Of a stretch of 32,000 bases of DNA, positions 2,218-23,380 are shown piece after piece. Under the pieces are notes generated by a model. That model had not been told where the DNA came from and did not search any database. It saw nothing but the letters and a program-made list of their open reading frames with translations. The position numbers and the translations under genes were made by a program. Every line of letters begins with the position of its first letter. The first letter of the stretch is position 1. This DNA comes from Labilithrix sp. (GTDB taxonomy: Bacteria; Myxococcota_A; Polyangia; Polyangiales; Polyangiaceae): positions 50,032 through 82,031 of the forward strand of contig JAHBWA010000020.1 in assembly GCA_019637195.1 (NCBI GenBank), given 5' to 3'.

Positions 2218-4200
2218 ATGCTCGCGTTTGGTGCAGTAAGAGCCGTCCGCCGCGTGCTCCACGGCGCGGCGGCGGGGGCGGTGGCCGCGCTGGCGATCGC
2301 GCTCGTCGACCTCGTCGGTCGCGACCGGCTCGGCAACGGCGGTGTGTCGGGGCACCTGGCGGCGATCTCGGCGCTCTTCGTGGCGGTCGGCGCGGGCCTC
2401 ATGGCGAGCGTCGTCGCCGCGACGCTCGCCGCGTCGTCGATCGTCGGCGGCTCGCGTCGCTGGCTCGCCTTCCGTCGCTCGGACGTCGTGGTCGCCGCGC
2501 TGGTCGCCGCGGCCGTGGGCGCCGCCCTGCAGAAGGTGACGCTCCACGGTCCGTTCGCCAAGCTGACGAGCTTCGTCCCGGTGGTCGGCGTCGTCGGTGC
2601 CTTCGTCACGGCCCTCGTCTGGCGGCGGCGCGCCGAGCGCGCGCGCCGGCGCTTTGCGGTCGCGCTGCACGTCGTCGTCGCGCTCGCGCTCGGGCTCGGC
2701 TTGCTCTGGCTCGACCTCCGCGTGCTCCGCGGACGCCACAGCGGCGCGCACCTCGCCCTCGAGATCGGCGCGTTCTTCGCCTTCGGCGGGGCCGTCGCGC
2801 TCGCGACGCGCCGGGTCGCGTGGGGCCGCCGGCCCGTGGTGCTCGTCGGGGCCGCCGCCTTCGCGTGGTCGGCGCTCTTCTTCGTCTCGCCCGACCGGCG
2901 GCGCGACCGCTTCATCGCGCTGAGCCACCTCACGGCGGATCCGTCGATCGCGGGGAACCTCTACGCCCAGTCGCTGCCGCTGATGGGGCGCATCGAGGGG
3001 CCGGCGCCGGCGCGCCTCGACATCGAGCGGTGGCAGAGCGGCGAGCACGAGACGTCCGAGCAGACCGAGTCCGCCGCGCGGCTCCGCCTGGGCTGCCCCG
3101 ACTGCAACATCGTCGTCTACTTCGTCGACACGCTGCGCGCCGACACGGCGGCCGATCCCGACGTCATGCCCGCGGCGTCCTTCTTCACCAAGTCGTCGAT
3201 CCGCTTCCCGCAGACGTATTCGACGGCGTCGGACACGCTGCGCGCGCTCTCCAGCCTGCTCGTGGGGCGGTACGACGGCCAGCCGGACGAGCGCGAGGGG
3301 AGCGTGCTCAAGCGGGTGCGCTCGCGCGGCCTCGACAACGCGCTCTTCATCTCCACGTCGGCGAACGACTACCTCCAGGCGCAGCTGCCGGAGTTTCGCT
3401 TCGACGAGGTCGTCGCGCTCCCGGATCACTCGCCCGACGTCGAGGTCTGGGGCTACGGCGCCGACACGCCGACCGGCGACGCCGTGGCGCGGTCGGCGCT
3501 GTCGTGGATGAACGCGCACCGCGACTCCCGCTTCTTCGCGTGGATCTACAACTTCGATCTGCACGGCTGGCGGCAGATGAAGGACGAGCACGTGGGGCCC
3601 GTCGACGAGGTCGCGCGCCCCGACGCCCGCTACCGCGCCGTCGCCGGCCTGGTCGATCAGAGCTTCCGCTCGATGATCGAAGGCCTCGAGGAGCTCAAGC
3701 TGGCCGACCGCACGATCGTCCTTCTGCTCTCGGACCACGGCGAGGCGCTCGGCTACCGCGGGTTCTGGACCCACTCTACGTTCCTCTGGCAGTCGCTCAT
3801 CCGCGTGCCCCTCGCGATCCGTGTCCCGGGCCTCGAGCCGCGCGAGGTCACGCACCAGGCGTCGCTCGTCGACATCGCGCCGACGATCTCGCGCTTCGTC
3901 GACCCGGCCGCCAACATGAGCGGGTTCCACGGCGTCGACCTGATGCGCTTCTACGTCGACCCCGAGGCGCAGCGCGGGCTCCCGCTCCTCTTGCACGCCA
4001 GCAGCGAGGGCAAGGCGACGATGTACGGCGTGGTTGCCGGCGGGCGGAAGCTGATCCTCCCGAGCGCCGGCGGGCCGCCCTTGCTCCACGATCTCGAGGG
4101 CGACGATCCCGACGAGACCGATCTCGCGATGGCCGAGCCCAACGACACCGCGAACCTGCTCGACCTCCTCGTCGCGTCGCCGATCGTCACGATCCAGTAG
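2218..4200 (+). CDS. Membrane-anchored sulfatase-like hydrolase/transferase (alkaline phosphatase superfamily)
   Basis: About 230 aa of N-terminal hydrophobic helices, then NIVVYFVDTLRADT and LLLSDHGEALG motifs typical of sulfatase/LtaS/MdoB-type domains. No C/S-x-P-x-R formylglycine motif seen. Confidence 0.75.
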   Translation: MLAFGAVRAVRRVLHGAAAGAVAALAIALVDLVGRDRLGNGGVSGHLAAISALFVAVGAGLMASVVAATLAASSIVGGSRRWLAFRRSDVVVAALVAAAVGAALQKVTLHGPFAKLTSFVPVVGVVGAFVTALVWRRRAERARRRFAVALHVVVALALGLGLLWLDLRVLRGRHSGAHLALEIGAFFAFGGAVALATRRVAWGRRPVVLVGAAAFAWSALFFVSPDRRRDRFIALSHLTADPSIAGNLYAQSLPLMGRIEGPAPARLDIERWQSGEHETSEQTESAARLRLGCPDCNIVVYFVDTLRADTAADPDVMPAASFFTKSSIRFPQTYSTASDTLRALSSLLVGRYDGQPDEREGSVLKRVRSRGLDNALFISTSANDYLQAQLPEFRFDEVVALPDHSPDVEVWGYGADTPTGDAVARSALSWMNAHRDSRFFAWIYNFDLHGWRQMKDEHVGPVDEVARPDARYRAVAGLVDQSFRSMIEGLEELKLADRTIVLLLSDHGEALGYRGFWTHSTFLWQSLIRVPLAIRVPGLEPREVTHQASLVDIAPTISRFVDPAANMSGFHGVDLMRFYVDPEAQRGLPLLLHASSEGKATMYGVVAGGRKLILPSAGGPPLLHDLEGDDPDETDLAMAEPNDTANLLDLLVASPIVTIQ

Positions 4201-6749: not shown

Positions 6750-6900
6750 CGCTCTGCCGGAGCTTGGAGCGTCAGCTCCGGGAGCGCCGCGCTCTGCCGG
6801 AGCTTGGCGCATCAGCTCCGGCCGCGACACGCTGTGCCGGAGCTTGGCGCGTCAGCCCGGCGGCGCCGCGCTGCTGCCGGAGCTTGGCGCGTCAGCACGG
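6750..6900. repeat. Tandem array, 4 units of about 40 bp, each with a hairpin-forming core
   Basis: Units start at 6750, 6790, 6830 and 6869 (CGCTCTGCCGGAGCTTGGxGCxTCAGCTCCGG...). In units 1-2, CCGGAGCT pairs with AGCTCCGG (8 bp, 9-nt loop); units 3-4 are degenerate. Unit 4 contains the receiver gene stop codon (6892-6894). Confidence 0.85.
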
Positions 6901-7266
6901 ACGCGCGGTGAGGCGACCGACGATCCGCCGGACCAGCTCGGCCGGGAGGATCGGCTTGCGGAGGAAGGCGTCGCAGCCCGCGCGCCACGCGCGGAGGCGG
7001 TGCTCGTCCTCGCTGAAACCGGTGACCGCCATCACGTAGATGTCCTTCGTGCGAGGGTCCTTCTTCAGCCGCTGGGTCGCGGTCCATCCGTCGACGCCCG
7101 GCATCGCGAGGTCCATCACGACGACGTCGGGCTCGAGCTCCTTCGCCTTCGCGATCGCCTGCGCGCCGTCGTCGACGGCGACGACGCGGAAGCCGGCGAA
7201 GCGCAGGTAGTCGGCGTAAATCCGCCGCGTGTCCTCGTAGTCGTCGGCCACGAGCACGAGGGGCAT
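6892..7266 (-). CDS. Single-domain response regulator (CheY-like receiver)
   Basis: MPLVLVADDYEDTRR...VVVMDLAMPGVDG...VMAVTG...FLRKP shows the acidic pair, phospho-acceptor Asp, Thr and Lys of receiver domains. ATG at 7266 chosen within ORF 6892..7386. Confidence 0.85.
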   Translation of the reverse strand: MPLVLVADDYEDTRRIYADYLRFAGFRVVAVDDGAQAIAKAKELEPDVVVMDLAMPGVDGWTATQRLKKDPRTKDIYVMAVTGFSEDEHRLRAWRAGCDAFLRKPILPAELVRRIVGRLTARPC

Positions 7267-7511
7267 CTTCAGGGTGGTGCGCTTCACTATCCCAAGGATG
7301 ACGCTCGGCGGGCCGTTCGAAAATGAGGTGATGCGCCGCGTAGTCGCGTGTCGGAGCACCGCGCCTGCATCGAGGGCATCGGCCATCGACGCCGGTGACG
7401 TCGAGCTGCGCTGTCGGAGGCCGATCTCGGGGCCCGCGCGGCCGGGGTGCCGCGCACGCGGATCGCAGCTCGGCCGCCCGCGTCGTCGTCATCGTCCCTG
7501 CGCGCCCGAGG

Positions 7512-7556
7512 ACAAAATAGGCACGAGGGCGAGCCGGTCACCCGGTCGCCCTCGTG
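7512..7556 (-). terminator. Rho-independent terminator (minus strand)
   Basis: Minus-strand read: CACGAGGGCGACCGG-GUGA-CCGG(C)UCGCCCUCGUG. This is a 15-bp stem with one bulge and a GNRA loop, followed by CCUAUUUUGUCC. Confidence 0.65.
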
Positions 7557-9935
7557 TTGGTTCGCTTTCCGTGGGGGAGCGTCTTAGCGCTCCGTTGCGG
7601 ATCTCTGTCCGCCCCGTTGGACGTTGCGTCAGGGGGCCACTCACCCGCCTGCGCCATCGTCGCGTTCGAAACTTGGGTGCCTTCACTACAGCCCCGGCCA
7701 TTCGCGTGGTCAGGGAAGAGGAGGGTCGACGAAGCTATTCGCTGTCGTCAGCTTCAGCCGATCACGATGCGGCGCACCTCTGAGACCGGCGCCTTTTCGA
7801 GCGCCGAGGATGCGGACTCCCCGTGGACCTTCTCGGACCTTGAAGAGCCTTCACCGAAACGTGTCGACCTCTGACGTTCCCGTCGTCACTCTCAGGCACG
7901 GCCGAGTCGGAATCCGTATCCGCCCGATCCGCTGTCCAGCGTCAGCGCGTCGACCTTGCGGCCGCCGGAGGCTGGCGTGGAGTTGACCTGCGAGTCAGAG
8001 GACCCTGCGTCGCCCTGCCGGTGAGGGCAAGACGGGCAAGAGCCCGAGAACGCCTTCTGTCGTGTCGAGAGCCTGCAAGCCGAGACCCGCAGGTCGCGCG
8101 AGAGGAGACTTTTGGATCACCTCACGCACGCGCACCGTTTCGCCTTCTGCCCACCCGCGCCCCGCGTCAGGCGGTGCTACGGGCTTCTTCCTGGCTAGCG
8201 CCCTCTTTCAGCCACCAACAGGCCTTGCGACCTCCCGGTGAAGAAGACGCGCGATGCGTCCGACCGACTTCTGCCACCCATTCGAACTGCGTGCACCCGC
8301 ACCTCGTCTGTTCCCGGTTCCTGACGCCGCTTTCACGGCGGGGACGCCCCGCGGAGAATAAGGCTCCGAGCGACTTTCCGGGGGACCGGACGTTTCACGA
8401 CGTCCGAGACCGCTTCGGCGGGTCGTCATTCAACGCAGGTTCTCGTGTCCGCTTGGAACCACGAGCGTGGGCGTTTTCTTCCCACGGCGCTGATGCGACC
8501 GAGCCTCTGACACCCCTGTCGCGATCTCCCGGTTCACCCTCCGCCTCACCCGCCTTCGCCGGTGCTGCGTCTTGGCCGTAGGTCCTTCTCTTCGAAGGGG
8601 TGCTACGGGTCGGAGGATGGGGGAAAGCGCCGAGACCAACGTCCACGCCGTCTCGTGAAAGACGACGCTTCGAGATGATCCGGGATGCCTTCCGCCGGTA
8701 GGGACTCTTCGTAGGATCCGGTGGCCATTACAACCCCGGTCCCGCGACCGCCTCACCGCTCGTGGCGATGCGACGACCGCTGGATGACGATCTCTCGCCA
8801 CCCTGAGCCTGCGCCGGTCCTCTCCCGTCTCTAGCGGTGAGGCCGACGTGCGATTCGTCCCTTCGCTCGACACCCCCGCTGACGGTCTCACCCGCCAGCG
8901 CGCGTCCCGAGCTAGGTCCCTGTTCACTCGACCCTGACCGCTCTTTTTGGAGCGCGTTTGCCGAGCCTATTCGAGACCAGACGTCGCCTACCGACTTCTG
9001 CAACTAACGATCGACGTGCGGGCAACCAAACCCGGACTCTCAGGATCCTCGCAGGGACGGAGGCCTCGACCTCCTTCCTTTTCTTGAACATGCCACGCTG
9101 CCTTCCTTGCGGAAGCGGTGGCATGCGGCGAGCCGCGCTCCGTCCGTTCGCGAAAGCCCCAGTGTTGGTTTCTCCCACTCGCGTGGGGTTGCCCAACCGT
9201 GATGCCGTCTCGAACGCCCCGCCACCGAGGATTGCTCCTGCGGTGTGTAGCGAGGATTGACGCGCACGGGTCGAAGGACCGAGCGAAGGACGCGTCACCG
9301 AACGCATGCGACGATCTCTCGTGCCTGCGACGGGTGCATACGCATTTTTGCGCGCATGCCGACGAACGTTCCCCTCCTCGGCTGCCTTCGGACATCCGCT
9401 GTCATCGGCGCGTCTCGAACAACGGAGGATACCGCTGCCCGCTGACGGACCGACCGAGGCTGCCGTTCCGACGACGCCCCGCGAAGAGCGCCGCCTTCCA
9501 GGCGACCAGGATGCCTTTCACCGCCACGACACGCGAAGGAAAGTCACGCGGAGGAATGGATACCTCCGGCCTTCGCGCCGGCTCTCCCGCTCACGCCGCC
9601 CACACTTTGTCCCCAGGCTGGGGAGAGTGCTCTTGATGGGCATTGCGAGGCCACGGTGCGGTCACCCGCGGGTTCCGTGGCAGGCTCGAGAGTACAGACG
9701 CCTTTGTGGCTCGTTGGATGTTCGCGCCTGGGACTGACGACCCAAGCACGCCACCGAGCTCGACCGGATCGGCCGTCGACGAGGTCAGATTGCCCCGCTC
9801 GCACCGATGCCAGTCGCAGCGCCCAGACGGCTTCTACGACCGAGAGCCCGCGGCCCGATGTGCCGCGAACTTCATGAGCGGTGTTATGCCGTACGGCGGC
9901 CGGTCGTTCAACAGAAAAGTGGCCCGCTCAAACAT
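7512..9935 (-). ncRNA. Candidate very large structured non-coding RNA (or cluster of RNAs); no known family recognised
   Basis: There is no protein-like ORF in any frame, and the longest ORF is under 190 aa where shadow ORFs elsewhere exceed 400-1300 aa. GC is lower than in flanking genes. The minus strand looks purine-rich and has many hairpins with GNRA or A-rich loops. Two stems contain G-U pairs only when read on the minus strand. The 3' end is fixed by the terminator at 7512-7556; the 5' end is not defined. Confidence 0.35.
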
Positions 9936-9939
9936 TTTA

Positions 9940-9960
9940 TTATCCACAGAGTTATCCACA
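9940..9960 (+). promoter_or_regulatory. Two perfect consensus DnaA boxes in tandem (head-to-tail, 3-bp spacer)
   Basis: TTATCCACA at 9940-9948 and again at 9952-9960, inside the most AT-rich patch of the left half of the window (cattttatTATCCACAgagTTATCCACAg). Confidence 0.6.
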
Positions 9961-10105
9961 GTTCGCGGCGCAAGGAAGCCCGAAGAAGCGCAAGTTGGCC
10001 CATTTTGTAGGGAAATTCTGTGATTTTCGCGCTCGAGGACACCTTGTTCGTGAGTAAATAAGTTGATTTGAAGTGGGATGAGGTGACTGGAAATCGTATT
10101 TGTGA

Positions 10106-10129
10106 TGCGTGTTTGATTGCGTGTTTGAT
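10106..10129. repeat. Perfect tandem 12-mer (iteron-like)
   Basis: TGCGTGTTTGAT at 10106-10117 and 10118-10129, preceded by the related tttgtga. Lies in the AT-rich patch about 150 bp from the DnaA boxes. Confidence 0.7.
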
Positions 10130-10422
10130 GTGGCGGCGCGGTCGCGAGGCTGTGGCCGCTCTGGCGCGGCTTCCGCTGGCGCTGCGGCGGCAGCACGCTC
10201 GCGTTTCTGTCACGCGATCGTTTCGCGATCGGGGCCGTGAGGCGACCTGGCTCTGTCCGCCAACACTCGCCGAACCGCGCTGGGGGGGCGGATTGACCGC
10301 GGGCAGAATCGATCGCGCGCTCGGTTGCCCAACCCGGAACCCGGCGGCAGGAGAGCGGCGCGGCCGACCGTCCGAGGTGAGGCGCGTCGGGTGTTCCTCG
10401 ATGCACGTCGCGCGCGCGGCAT

Positions 10423-10513
10423 GGGGCGCTCGTCGAGGCGCGCGCGGCACGGGGCGCTCGTCGAGGCGCGCGGGGCGCTCGTCGAGGCGCGCGGGGCGCT
10501 CGTCGAGGCGTGT
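10423..10513. repeat. Tandem array of a 21-bp GC-rich unit (4 copies)
   Basis: GGGGCGCTCGTCGAGGCGCGC at 10423, 10451, 10472 and 10493. There is an extra 7 bp after copy 1, and the last copy ends GTGT. The array begins 20 bp downstream of the minus-strand stop at 10534. Confidence 0.85.
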
Positions 10514-10533
10514 GGGGCGCGGGCGTCGCGTGC

Positions 10534-11721
10534 TCAGGGAGCGACGTTTGCGTAGACGGCCGTCGTGCTGCCTTCCATGCGCGTCCAGCGGAGGTTCGAC
10601 TCGATGGTGCGGGCGTCGGCGGTCGACGGGCGGACCTCCATCCCAGTGTTCGTGACCGGGAGGAGCTGCACCTGGCGGAGCGCCAGCGTCTCGGCGTCGA
10701 AGAGCGCGCGGCCGATGAAGTTCCGGCTCTGGACGGCGAGCGACGGGTGGAGGAAGTTTCCGAGGCTCTCGAAGATGACGCCCTTGCCGCCGCCCGACTT
10801 CTTGACGACGCGCACGGGCTTCCAGACGTGCGGGCCGTGCCCGAAGACGACGTCGCCGCCGTAGCGCTCGACGAACTCGATGCTCCGGCGCACGAGCTCG
10901 TCTTGATCGGCGGCGGCCCGGCTATGGGCCGAGAGGATGCGGAGGTCCGCCGGCGCGTCGCGGAGGCTCTCGTAGAGCGCGCGCGTATCGTCGAGGCACG
11001 CGGCGCGCGGGCACGACGCGCGGCCGGTGTAGATGCTGCCGAACGCGACGCGGACCTCGCGGCCCTTGATCGTGAAGGTCCGGACCTGCGCGCGGGCGGA
11101 GTCGTCGTCGCCCGTCCCGGCGACGCCGGCGGTGAGCCACTCGAGATCGCCGAGCCCGTGGATCGCGCGCGCGGTCATCGCGACGCTCGCGCCCTCTCCG
11201 CGCACGGTGGTCTCCGTGGAGCCGTGGCAGTCGCGCGTGTGGTTGTTCGACAGGGCGACGAGATTGAAGCCGCGCTCGTAGGCCTGAGTGAGGTTCTCGG
11301 GGCGCGAGACGAACGCGTAGGAGCGGCCGCGCACGTAGGGGCTCCCGAACTGCGTGCACTCGGTGCCCACGACGGTCTCCCAGTTGATGAAGGACAGATC
11401 GCCGCGGTACGACTGGCCGCTCGCGTCGAAGCGATCGAGGGCGGCGCCGAACGCCGCGGAGAGCGCCGTGCGCTCATGGGTCTTGCTCCACGCCGCGTCG
11501 CCGACGCCGCGGACGTCGATGAGGCTCGACTCGCTGCTCTTCAGCGGCGCCGGAGCGAGCGCCGACGCAGGCGCGGTCTCGTCGGGCTGCGTGATGGGGA
11601 CGATCGCGCTCTCGGCCTCCGCCGGCTCGCCATCGAGGTCGAGGACGTCGTCGTCGGCTTCGTTCGCGGCGCAGGCAAAGAGGACGAGGGGGAGGAGGGC
11701 CAGGAGGGAGCGAGCGCGCAC
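10534..11721 (-). CDS. CapA-family (PGA_cap, metallophosphatase-fold) lipoprotein
   Basis: Motifs GDLSFINWETV, ALSNNHTRDCHG, FGHGPHVWKP and ESLGNFLH. A GTG at 11721 gives VRARSLLALLPLVLFAC (lipobox). The ORF is open up to 11868, so the start is uncertain. Confidence 0.75.
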   Translation of the reverse strand: MRARSLLALLPLVLFACAANEADDDVLDLDGEPAEAESAIVPITQPDETAPASALAPAPLKSSESSLIDVRGVGDAAWSKTHERTALSAAFGAALDRFDASGQSYRGDLSFINWETVVGTECTQFGSPYVRGRSYAFVSRPENLTQAYERGFNLVALSNNHTRDCHGSTETTVRGEGASVAMTARAIHGLGDLEWLTAGVAGTGDDDSARAQVRTFTIKGREVRVAFGSIYTGRASCPRAACLDDTRALYESLRDAPADLRILSAHSRAAADQDELVRRSIEFVERYGGDVVFGHGPHVWKPVRVVKKSGGGKGVIFESLGNFLHPSLAVQSRNFIGRALFDAETLALRQVQLLPVTNTGMEVRPSTADARTIESNLRWTRMEGSTTAVYANVAP

Positions 11722-11930
11722 GCGGCTGGTGCGAGCAAGACCTACACCAGGACGACGGCCACGCCATTTCCAGGAGTTAGCGCCGATCGAGACGTCGAGG
11801 CCCCAGGCCCTGTGGGGTCCTCGATCCAGCAATGATCCACTCCCACTGGAGGAGGAGGACGAAATCACGTTGAAAAATCGAAGGCTCCATTAGGGCATCT
11901 TTCGGCACATGGTGTGCGAAAGCGCGGGGC

Positions 11931-21078: not shown

Positions 21079-21531
21079 TCAGTTCGAGAGGCAGATGCCG
21101 CCCAGTCCGCCGCCGCCCGGGATGCCGGCGTCGATCCCGCCGCCGCCGCCGCCGAGCGGGTTGAAGCAGCAGTGCGTGGCGGGGTTGCAGGTCGCGTCGC
21201 AGGGCGCCTGCGCCTGGAGCTCGTTTAACTTCATGAGCGCGGATGCCGGGTCGCAGTCGGGGATGCTACCGCCGCCCGAGCTGCTCGAGGAGGAGCTGGA
21301 GCTCGAGCTGCTCGACGTCGAGCCCGAGGAGCTGGAGCTGCTCGAGGAGCTCGAGCCGGCGTCCGTCGGGCCCGGGTTCGAGGGCGGCGGGAGCGTCGAG
21401 CTCGACTCCTTCTCGGTGGGCTCCCCGGCCCCCTCGGCGCCCGGGATCTCGGAGGCCGACTCCGCGCAGGCGGAGACGACGAGGACGGAGGCGACGAGGC
21501 CCGTGGCGACCAGAGCGTAGGCAGACTTCAT
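21079..21531 (-). CDS. Small lipoprotein with poly-Ser tract and Cys/Gly-rich C-terminus
   Basis: MKSAYALVATGLVASVLVVSAC lipobox. Long Ser run (SSSSSSSSSGSTSSSSSSSSSSSSS), then a module with 6 Cys and Gly runs. Confidence 0.7.
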   Translation of the reverse strand: MKSAYALVATGLVASVLVVSACAESASEIPGAEGAGEPTEKESSSTLPPPSNPGPTDAGSSSSSSSSSSGSTSSSSSSSSSSSSSGGGSIPDCDPASALMKLNELQAQAPCDATCNPATHCCFNPLGGGGGGIDAGIPGGGGLGGICLSN

Positions 21532-21599
21532 CGGGGACTGACGCTAACAAGGAGCTCGGGCTCCGAGCCATCTCCCTCGAGTCTCCCGACGGATCGAGA

Positions 21600-21848
21600 A
21601 TGACGTCCGCGAGGAGAACGAAGCTCGGATGTGCGACTCGGTCATTGATCGTGCCCGTGCTCGGCATGTTTGGGGGTGCGGCGTGCGGTGCGCTTGCTCG
21701 CTCCCGGCACCTCGCCCTGCGTGGCGGCTGCGTGCTGCGCTCGTGGACGTTCGCACCCATCTCCTCCAACGAGTCGCCGACCAAGCGGTCAGCGCCGGCG
21801 GTCCCCTGGCCCCGGTCCGCAGTGCCGCTCGATCTGCCCGATACATGA
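21600..21848 (+). CDS. Possible small hypothetical protein (weak call)
   Basis: ATG at 21600 gives MTSARRTKLGCATRSLIVPVLGMFGGAAC..., which is signal-like. There is no obvious RBS, third-position GC is lower than in core genes, and no family is recognised. Confidence 0.2.
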   Translation: MTSARRTKLGCATRSLIVPVLGMFGGAACGALARSRHLALRGGCVLRSWTFAPISSNESPTKRSAPAVPWPRSAVPLDLPDT

Positions 21849-22519
21849 CGTGTCAGGCGGTCATCTTCGGGAGCCGAGCTTCGGAGGCGGCTCGACGCCG
21901 TGCAGGGCGTCGCGGGCGCAGTGCTCCGCTCTTCGCGACGTCGCTCGCGTGGGCGCCAGGACAGGCGCGATGTTCTGAGCGATGGGATGGTGCCTGGTCG
22001 ACCTCGTGGTGTGCCGTGAGCGCTGACGCCCATTGCCGGGTTCGGTCGCGGTCCAACCGCCGACGTCCAAGTTGTCCAATGGAACTACGTAAGACCATGA
22101 ATCTATTGTGTATATCTGCGTGCCCGATCTTCATTTAAAACGAACTTATGCGGATTTTGACGATTTGGCTTGCGTATCTCCGCACCCGTCAGCTACGAAG
22201 CGCACCATTGGCGATGGCCGCGTGCCGTCGACAGGGGATGAGGGGCTGGCAACGGGGTGATCCATCGTGTTCGCCCCGCAGTCGCGATGCTGACGACCGT
22301 GGAGGGGGGGCGTTGAAGCTGGGAGTGGTAGGCGGATCGCCCCGCGCAACATCGACGCGGTGGAACGATTGCCCGCGGTTCATTCGCGGAGGCTGCTCTC
22401 CGTTGGCGCTGCCTTTGGCGGGGGCATATTCATAGATACTCATCGAGCCAATATCGTGGCGCGCAACGCGATTTATCGGCGACACCCGCATACGGCTGCT
22501 GGGAGTCTGGAGTGCATTC

Positions 22520-23380
22520 GTGATAATTTATCGATCGATCTCGGTTCCCGAGTTGTGGGGCATCTTCATTCTCCCGATTTCTGGACTGCTTGTAGTGGGC
22601 GGCGGCGCATGTGACGGCAGCGGCGCACGCGGTGGTCCGCGCCGCGCGCGACCGGACCAGATCCCCGAACAGGTGGCGATCAACGAAGGAACGTCGACCT
22701 ACGGATTCTTCATCTCTCGCGACCGGAGGCCGCTCGACGTAGGCGCGTTCCGTGTCGCAAAGCGGCCGGTCACGGTCGCTCAGTACAACGAGTGCGTCGC
22801 CGCTGGAGCTTGCTCCGGCGCCGTTGAGAACGCGTGCATCGGCGTCGAGGACGGGCTGCGTGATGCGCTTGCCGGTCGGACCCAGGGCAGCGACGCAGAC
22901 GAAGCGATACCGATGACCTGTGTCGGGGTGAGGCAAGCCCAGGCCTACTGCGGCTGGGTCGGCGGCGCGTTGCCGACGATCTCGCAGTGGTTGACCGCCG
23001 CTCGCGGGCGCGAGGTCGCGCGATTTTCGTGGGGCAATACGCTTCCGCGTTGCGAGCAGCATCCCGCAGTCACCCATTCGGTGATCGGCGGACCATGCGC
23101 CGAATCCCAAGACCAGACCTTTGCCGTCGGGCGCCACGTCGCCGGCACATCGCCGCTTGGTGTCGAAGACGTCTTGCTGGCTTCAGGTGAGCTTATTGCG
23201 CCGTCCTCTGACTCGCCGGTCTCTGCGTGTGCGGCACCGTTTCCGGCCTGTGTTGCCTACGGCGTTCGGCCTGGGGCGATCGACAGCGTCGAGGCACTCG
23301 ACGGCGTCGACACCGAAGCCGGTGAGCGGAGCCGACAAGCCTATGCCTTCCGGTGCGCCTTCCCCGGAGACTCCAAATGA
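22520..23380 (+). CDS. FGE-sulfatase (SUMF1/EgtB/PvdO-type) domain protein
   Basis: GTG at 22520. A hydrophobic N-terminus ends GGGAC. Motifs FRVAKRPVTVAQYNECV, MTCVGVRQAQAYCGWVGGALPTISQWLTAARG, FSWGN, GVEDVL and a terminal YAFRCAF, typical of this fold. The stop overlaps the next start (ATGA). Confidence 0.75.
   Translation: MIIYRSISVPELWGIFILPISGLLVVGGGACDGSGARGGPRRARPDQIPEQVAINEGTSTYGFFISRDRRPLDVGAFRVAKRPVTVAQYNECVAAGACSGAVENACIGVEDGLRDALAGRTQGSDADEAIPMTCVGVRQAQAYCGWVGGALPTISQWLTAARGREVARFSWGNTLPRCEQHPAVTHSVIGGPCAESQDQTFAVGRHVAGTSPLGVEDVLLASGELIAPSSDSPVSACAAPFPACVAYGVRPGAIDSVEALDGVDTEAGERSRQAYAFRCAFPGDSK

Follow-up and report, generated by a model that had tools for sequence, protein, structure and literature searches.

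Twin DnaA boxes in fixed register upstream of a giant structured RNA gene in Labilithrix: a candidate DnaA-responsive control module

The window analysed here is a 32,000-nucleotide stretch of a Labilithrix sp. contig (JAHBWA010000020.1, positions 50,032 to 82,031). Between two minus-strand genes, one for a PGA_cap-family protein (10534-11868) and one for a receiver-domain response regulator (6892-7386), it carries a structured non-coding RNA gene of giant size and, just upstream of it, two exact DnaA boxes in an AT-rich island. The RNA gene, the boxes and the candidate control module to which the boxes would belong are the subject of this report. Signed positions are counted from +1, the A of the invariant ATGAAGTTCGCGG at window position 9875. 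The principal features are:

7510 to 9875, minus strand: structured non-coding RNA gene of ~2.36 kb (~2,366 nt), recognised by covariation, the lack of a coding signal and a terminator
7510 to 7556, minus strand: intrinsic terminator, with a 15-bp G+C-rich stem and GUGA loop (7556-7522) followed by a U-rich tail (7521-7510)
9952 to 9960, minus strand: DnaA box F1, exact consensus, TGTGGATAA on the RNA-sense strand, -85 to -77
9940 to 9948, minus strand: DnaA box F2, exact consensus, TGTGGATAA, -73 to -65, 12 bp start-to-start from F1

Orthologous loci were retrieved by anchoring on the PGA_cap protein in Labilithrix and related Polyangia genomes. Similarity to four of these genomes begins exactly at the box pair and ends 2.45 kb leftward, at the hairpin at 7522-7556. 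Across 9961-7511, identity to the window is 92, 87.5, 94 and 78% in loci L001, L002, L004 and L036, respectively, which is above that of the neighbouring coding genes. A coding explanation for this conservation was rejected. Real genes show third-position GC of 0.8-0.96, and no frame shows such a signal across ~7500-10530; in this interval GC is flat over the three codon positions and substitutions are not 3-periodic (201/212/215).

Folding points to structure on the minus strand. The five-sequence fold of that strand reaches -1111 kcal/mol with 107 compensatory pairs, as compared to ~-812 kcal/mol and 21-34 compensatory pairs in column shuffles, and -860 kcal/mol and 74 on the opposite strand. 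When a 14-sequence alignment was folded with RNAalifold, the consensus contained 721 pairs, 251 compensatory, at -872 kcal/mol. Column shuffles of this alignment gave ~400 pairs, 47 compensatory, at ~-258 kcal/mol; the opposite strand gave 152 compensatory pairs at -485 kcal/mol. An independent count over the 5' half of the RNA put paired cells at 97% and found 98 pairs in which both sides had changed. Double changes of this kind number 35.8 +/- 4.1 in shuffles, none of 500 of which reached 98, and 14-34 when the partners are slid. The terminator hairpin itself is predicted at -31.4 kcal/mol (z = -6.0) and carries compensatory changes in L002. The locus therefore encodes a minus-strand, non-coding, structured RNA with defined ends.

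This RNA is 65.6% GC and is predicted to form 45 hairpins; of the 16 tetraloops, ten belong to the GNRA type. No Rfam 15 family matched the window at gathering thresholds, a search of 7300-10700 at E <= 5 returned a single chance-level match that lies outside the RNA, and six other copies of the RNA gave no match at E <= 1. No tRNA or tmRNA was found at the site, and the locus showed no similarity to 72,556 plasmids, 50,697 phages or viral contigs. An internal duplication of the RNA was considered and set aside, as the repeats amount to 10-16 nt with non-significant E-values. A metagenome scan with an invariant 20-mer located 18 further loci, among them six more full-length copies (two being duplicates of L002) and four contigs that hold the RNA alone. 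To our knowledge, the 2.36-kb RNA of these Labilithrix-type soil bacteria is larger than any other non-ribosomal structured bacterial RNA; literature searches on a giant myxobacterial RNA or on Labilithrix DnaA found nothing relevant.

Among described families, the closest in character are the 'ornate' RNAs GOLLD (~800 nt), ROOL (~580 nt) and OLE (~610 nt), which are likewise large, conserved, intricately folded and without an assigned function; GOLLD was called 'giant' at about 800 nt (PMC12286853). The many GNRA tetraloops and the abundant covariation are shared features. Unlike the GOLLD-type RNAs, the Labilithrix RNA is about three times the length of GOLLD, lacks an Rfam match in seven copies, and is a chromosomal, single-copy gene of a narrow myxobacterial clade, with no phage or tRNA association and with DnaA boxes in front of it.

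On the plus strand, these boxes are exact copies of TTATCCACA at 9940-9948 and 9952-9960, arranged head-to-tail with a 3-bp spacer, in the positions and orientation given by an earlier sequence-only reading of this DNA. DnaA boxes were scored as 9-mers matching TTATCCACA, or TTATNCACA with variants, and both window boxes match at 9/9 positions. They are the only perfect copies of TTATCCACA in the window, where composition predicts ~0.04 (the sequence-only reading had estimated 0.03); sites with at most one mismatch number 4, against 0.8 in dinucleotide shuffles, and the background is 0.36 boxes with up to two mismatches per 600 nt. The earlier conclusion that the pair exceeds chance is borne out further by comparison, since the pair recurs at the same place in all related sequences examined, 12 distinct ones from Labilithrix-like genomes and metagenomes. 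The remaining features of the upstream region, as defined in this comparison, are:

about -445, minus strand, none in the window: weaker inverted CTnTCCACA box, present in 8 of the 12 sequences
10066 to 10129, minus strand: array of TCAAAC-type hexamers at 10128-10123, 10116-10111, 10103-10098 and 10071-10066 (about -254, -242, -229 and -196)
10049 to 10057, minus strand: degenerate inverted DnaA box, TTACTCACG, with three mismatches; TTATCCACA/TTTTCCACA at -183 in most relatives
9931 to 10130, no strand assigned: AT-rich island of 44.5% GC, the lowest-GC 200 bp of the window, holding the entire upstream control module
-130 to -86, minus strand: 45 nt upstream of F1, variable and G+C-rich
9951 to 9949 (-76 to -74), minus strand: spacer between the boxes
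9922 to 9939 (about -64 to -47), minus strand: A-tract and GTGnTTGAG following F2, in UP (upstream promoter) element-like position; consensus AAAAAGTGaTTGAG, identity 0.79 over the 12 sequences
9906 to 9911 (about -36 to -31), minus strand: candidate -35, TTGAAC (TTGCGA or TTGATC in other lineages), with an invariant TTG
9905 to 9889, minus strand: sequence-variable spacer, exactly 17 nt in the window and four genome loci, +/-1 nt in some other lineages
9883 to 9888 (-13 to -8), minus strand: candidate -10, CATAAC (CATAAA in other lineages), identity 0.87

The register of the twin boxes is conserved. F1 is found at -85 (+/-1) and F2 at -73 (+/-1) in each of the 12 sequences; a lack of conservation at orthologous loci, which the earlier reading had listed as refuting, is thus not seen in this set. 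Mean pairwise identity is 0.97 for F1 and 0.96 for F2, on par with the first 40 nt of the RNA (0.97), as compared to 0.47 for the spacer between the boxes and 0.46 for the 45 nt upstream. Judged by this pattern of sequence conservation, the boxes are the footprint of a 9-bp DNA-binding site under site-specific purifying selection. The sole variant of the twin boxes, listed for F1, is TGTGGACAA (equivalent to TTGTCCACA), and TTGTCCACA is the DnaA-box consensus of high-GC actinomycetes. The boxes thus stand in a conserved register upstream of a defined transcription unit. An inverted repeat that flanks them in the window (9859-9871 and 9960-9972) is without conservation in relatives and was treated as chance.

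Additional boxes lie farther upstream. The inverted box is present with at most one mismatch in nine of the 12 sequences, at -182 to -185, and matches at 9/9 positions at -183 in five lineages. Decayed forms are seen in the window, L040 and L001. L039 lacks the inverted box altogether; there the distal DNA differs and the twin boxes alone are kept. The presence of inverted further boxes at conserved positions argues for recognition of DNA, rather than RNA.

The AT-rich island contains a second set of repeats. The earlier reading had described this DNA as the most AT-rich of the left half of the window, which understates it, as the island is the extreme of the window as a whole (window GC ~68%). 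Upstream regions of all relatives are similarly depleted, at 45-58% GC against a genome value of ~68%. The exact tandem 12-mer reported at 10106-10129 is present as two copies of TGCGTGTTTGAT; on the minus strand it reads ATCAAACACGCA twice (10129-10106) and corresponds, in the window, to the first two TCAAAC hexamers. These hexamers occupy the same positions (+/-2 nt) in 11 of the 12 sequences, with a spacing of 12-13 bp, while the intervening DNA varies. The E. coli-type IHF consensus, WATCAANNNNTTR, has a full match in none of the 12 upstream regions, the TCAAAC array included. Between the island and the PGA_cap gene, directly downstream of the PGA_cap stop codon, is a G+C-rich tandem repeat (10395-10541; unit GGGGCGCTCGTCGAGGCGCGC, 5-6 copies at 21- or 28-nt spacing).

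Between the boxes and the RNA, the TTG-N17-CATAA arrangement is a promoter-like pattern that predicts +1 at ~9876-9875, where the invariant RNA sequence and the first covarying helix begin. By its position, the A-tract that precedes it may have an UP-like function. The stretch from the boxes to the RNA start shows no unusual fold on the RNA-sense strand (z = +0.9), which speaks against a structured leader and fits promoter DNA. The boxes lie ~30 nt upstream of this -35/-10-like pair, the only conserved one. The sequence-only reading had proposed that the boxes gate a leftward RNA through a -10 (GATAAT/TAAAAT) embedded within them. The general idea finds support in the conservation that runs from the boxes to the terminator and from the constant distance in 12 lineages; the embedded -10 does not hold, because it is found only in the window and in L040, its near-identical metagenomic twin, with GATAAA/AAAAAG in other lineages. 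The exact start site (or processing site) and the sigma factor are assigned as candidates. A sigma-54-type GG-N10-GC can be read in the variable spacer, where the GG is often well placed; the match is weak and L036 has an indel. A promoter of the extracytoplasmic function (ECF) type, GAAC...CGT, was rejected on its spacing.

Contigs that hold the RNA alone bear on the position of its 5' end. L038, L041, L050 and L053 are 2.1-2.4 kb. They begin within ~10 nt of the stretch that corresponds to window 9885-9875 and extend to the terminator or stop just short of it. The starts of L038, L050 and L041 lie within 3 nt of each other (CACCGCTCATG, CCGCTCATG and CGCTCATG, respectively), and the homology of L053 begins at ATGAAG after 8 unrelated nt. 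A further contig, L037 (1-1625), is circularly permuted: at a junction at ~485-495, ...GCGATCGATG is joined to TGAAGTTCG, the first bases of the invariant RNA, and its 3' portion stops ~165 nt before the terminator. This junction could arise from a template switch by reverse transcriptase at the 5' end, from a circular or branched RNA, or from an assembly chimera. All five contigs are in sense orientation, which favours transcripts. The JGI contigs concerned are Ga0242658_1002543, Ga0308185_1000964, Ga0127502_10192279, Ga0308189_10005023 and Ga0134038_1221388. This is suggestive that they may be metatranscriptome assemblies and, hence, that the RNA may be abundantly expressed. They were not taken as proof of expression, as contigs broken by the assembler where a conserved block begins and ends would look identical.

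The control module and the RNA gene are kept together throughout, despite changes in their neighbours. The immediate neighbours vary among a PGA_cap pair, a divergent LigB-type dioxygenase (L042, L044) and an adenosine deaminase (L051), and a response regulator or a peptidase C26 lies downstream. Farther out, the lineages have one region in common, which includes a trypsin-like protease and an H+-pyrophosphatase. The stand-alone response regulator at 6892-7386 is directly downstream of the terminator in L001, L002, L004, L036 and L005, and is not found there in more distant relatives. No complete genome carrying the locus was found; a neighbouring protein was matched only on a 5.8-kb Logan contig. 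One lineage has lost the RNA. L005 retains, at 2746-3108, an internally deleted, decayed RNA gene that is reduced to ~60 nt at the 5' end and ~110 nt at the 3' end, and its boxes have degenerated to TGTGGAAAA and TGTGGAGAA. This remnant shows that the RNA is dispensable in at least one lineage.

We consider it moderately probable that the promoter of the giant RNA has a DnaA-responsive upstream control module with the twin boxes at its core, a module that would couple the RNA to replication state. Closely spaced head-to-tail DnaA boxes favour cooperative binding. Here, DnaA would bind cooperatively to the two boxes, centred near -81 and -69, just upstream of the A-rich UP-like tract and the TTG-N17-CATAA core promoter; in most lineages it would also occupy the inverted boxes at -183 and about -445. 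Bound DnaA would then raise or lower the recruitment of RNA polymerase, and the level of the giant RNA would follow DnaA availability and, with it, replication-initiation status. A second, non-DnaA factor would probably act on the TCAAAC hexamers from -254 to -196. As to the direction of regulation, activation or architectural control may be likelier than occlusion, since the boxes lie upstream of the -35 without overlapping the core promoter.

This arrangement has precedent. DnaA activates or represses through boxes in the promoter regions of dnaA, nrdAB and sda, with an outcome that depends on DnaA level and bound nucleotide, and multiple boxes at such promoters allow cooperative, nucleotide-state-dependent binding (PMC8203912, PMC2533591). 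Like the promoters of E. coli dnaA and nrdAB and of B. subtilis sda, ywlC and yydA, the Labilithrix module has clustered high-affinity boxes in or just upstream of a promoter. It differs in its target, a 2.36-kb structured non-coding RNA rather than a protein-coding gene, and in its architecture, which combines a perfect head-to-tail pair (-81/-69) with inverted boxes farther upstream and another repeat array; here the regulation is also predicted rather than observed. A review of DnaA transcriptional targets never mentions a non-coding RNA target (PMC8203912). Clusters of DnaA boxes at promoters are already known, and the DNA element is of this kind; its novelty lies in the giant-RNA target, the architecture and the lineage (Myxococcota, Polyangia). 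In overall layout the module also resembles rRNA-type promoters, of which rrnB P1 combines an UP element with phased upstream activator (Fis) sites. As an analogy only, both would have an A/T-rich tract just upstream of the -35, position-conserved sites extending to about -250 and a stable-RNA gene; the upstream sites here are DnaA boxes and TCAAAC hexamers, not Fis sites.

Several points weigh against a DnaA-responsive promoter. The candidate core promoter is weak by sigma-70 rules: CATAAC is an imperfect match to TATAAT and lacks the T at -7, and a sigma-70 promoter scan returned no match at this position. Three of the RNA-only contigs reach 5-8 nt farther upstream than the predicted +1. A simple occlusion model is inapplicable to boxes at -69/-81, which lie clear of the core promoter, and the window's own lineage does without the distal inverted boxes. 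The consensus used in scoring, TTATCCACA, may not be the box preferred by Labilithrix DnaA; a different one, TTATCCCCC, is predicted for the oriC of Sorangium (PMC2650636). Finally, both DnaA binding at the boxes and an effect on transcription are predictions from sequence.

The difference in predicted boxes also bears on whether another protein altogether recognises the TGTGGATAA repeats, their identity to the DnaA consensus being coincidental. Sorangium, with its different predicted box, is a relative, and the TCAAAC repeats, a second and unexplained set, show that other factors are at work here. Coincidence must nevertheless account for two sites that match at 9/9 positions and a third, inverted, that does so in five lineages. 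The DNA-binding domain of DnaA is highly conserved, which also speaks against a different recognition protein. The tolerated variants TTGTCCACA and TTTTCCACA are, moreover, known DnaA-box variants, the latter cyanobacterial (PMC2650636). Recognition by another protein is accordingly judged unlikely. If the protein is DnaA, the boxes could instead serve as a reservoir or modulator, titrating DnaA or changing its nucleotide state without control of the RNA, at a site beside a heavily transcribed stable-RNA gene that would perhaps let transcription modulate occupancy. Up to four boxes within ~450 bp at conserved positions are in keeping with such a role. Both the B. subtilis box clusters and E. 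coli datA, DARS1 and DARS2 are, like the boxes here, non-origin chromosomal clusters conserved among relatives; some of the conserved intergenic clusters of B. subtilis have an unclear transcriptional role (PMC2533591). The datA site adjoins tRNA genes, much as the boxes adjoin a stable-RNA gene, and read-through transcription from these genes is reported to affect datA (PMC10950094). What a pure titration site does not require is a box-to-RNA-start distance fixed to +/-1 nt in 12 lineages, and in L005 the boxes degenerate alongside the RNA gene; this strict register and co-decay argue for a transcriptional role over one like that of datA or DARS. The boxes are also fewer, with two strong ones in the window and up to four in relatives, against 4-10 in the B. 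subtilis clusters, 5 in datA and 3-6 in DARS. The specific arrangement of boxes with IHF/Fis sites at datA/DARS (PMC4585315) is not reproduced in number, in arrangement or in IHF, the consensus of which is missing from all 12 upstream regions, and the boxes here are locked in register with a transcription start. A reservoir role is therefore rather unlikely, if somewhat less so than recognition by another protein.

The sequence-only reading had also raised an origin of replication, chromosomal or plasmid-type. In a chromosomal or secondary origin, the AT-rich 12-mer island would act as the unwinding element of the boxes, and transcription of the adjacent RNA would activate or prime initiation. 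As in a bacterial oriC, perfect DnaA boxes adjoin AT-rich DNA, here the richest of the region, in which short direct repeats recur at 12-bp intervals. In E. coli, R1 faces the 13-mers, and the orientation of the twin boxes puts the AT-rich DNA on the same side. Polyangia origins are poorly defined (PMC2650636). The surroundings lend an origin no support. As that reading had noted, no replication genes are present: Pfam scans of all convincing open reading frames (ORFs) gave none, and dnaA and dnaN are absent within -10/+22 kb in the window and from the 10-21-kb related loci, whereas the predicted Sorangium oriC abuts dnaN (PMC2650636). A search for DnaA-trio repeats beside the boxes, suggested by the same reading, found no conserved array and no periodic pattern; on the island side, the adjoining DNA is G+C-rich and varies between lineages, and 110-170 bp separate the boxes from the AT-rich repeats. 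Within 450 bp the boxes may be too few for an oriC, two strong ones in the window and two strong plus one or two weaker in relatives. With the RNA masked and 6-22 kb per side, left/right GC skew in four genomes is 0.003/0.011, 0.001/-0.002, 0.026/0.012 and 0.027/-0.009, giving no consistent sign change over this span; the local skew minimum at the locus is due to the G-rich RNA itself. The boxes keep a fixed register to the RNA start, and in L005 the entire module has decayed together with the RNA gene, a loss that would not be tolerated in an essential origin. A chromosomal origin is thus very unlikely. An integrated plasmid- or phage-type replicon remnant is less likely still and can be considered extremely improbable. 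Its likeness is confined to superficial anatomy, namely boxes, short direct repeats and AT-rich DNA, whereas Pfam scans found no rep, integrase or mobility genes, the plasmid, phage and viral comparisons above found no similarity, and a dozen lineages share the region as a stable, syntenic part of the chromosome. Iterons, which lie by a rep gene on a mobile replicon, measure 17-22 bp; the repeats here are 6-mers spaced at 12 bp.

A more far-reaching version of the DnaA-responsive module would make the RNA a new giant structured class wired to the replication initiator, acting as a component or effector of replication or cell-cycle control. This is improbable. In its extreme form, the boxes, the AT-rich repeat island and the transcribed RNA would together constitute a transcription-activated or RNA-primed initiation site.

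Elsewhere in the window, ~2.2 kb at 21100-23320 lacks a clear coding signal. This interval includes an unusually long 96-nt tRNA-Arg(GCG) call (22916-23011), and the second-lowest-GC stretch of the window is at 22071-22270. Two ORFs lie from 23326 to 31998. The first, of 1,898 aa, has an IPT/TIG domain; the second is Tc-toxin-like (SpvB, TcdB_toxin_midN, FG-GAP) and is cut off by the end of the window. Third-position GC in this region is lower than elsewhere in the window, so that the DNA may have been acquired.

The known targets of DnaA as a transcription factor are a small number of protein-coding genes. If the proposed control of the giant RNA is true, the DnaA regulon would extend to a non-coding RNA, and the question is made testable by the box pair, with one well-defined transcript as the readout. 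A probably false origin candidate is also set aside in a clade where origins are hard to place. The larger prize is the RNA itself: ~2.4 kb, with more than 250 covarying pairs, of no known family and more strongly conserved than the proteins encoded beside it, it could represent a new ribonucleoprotein, ribozyme or RNA assembly. For this RNA, the box module would provide a first functional lead, namely a link to replication or the cell cycle.

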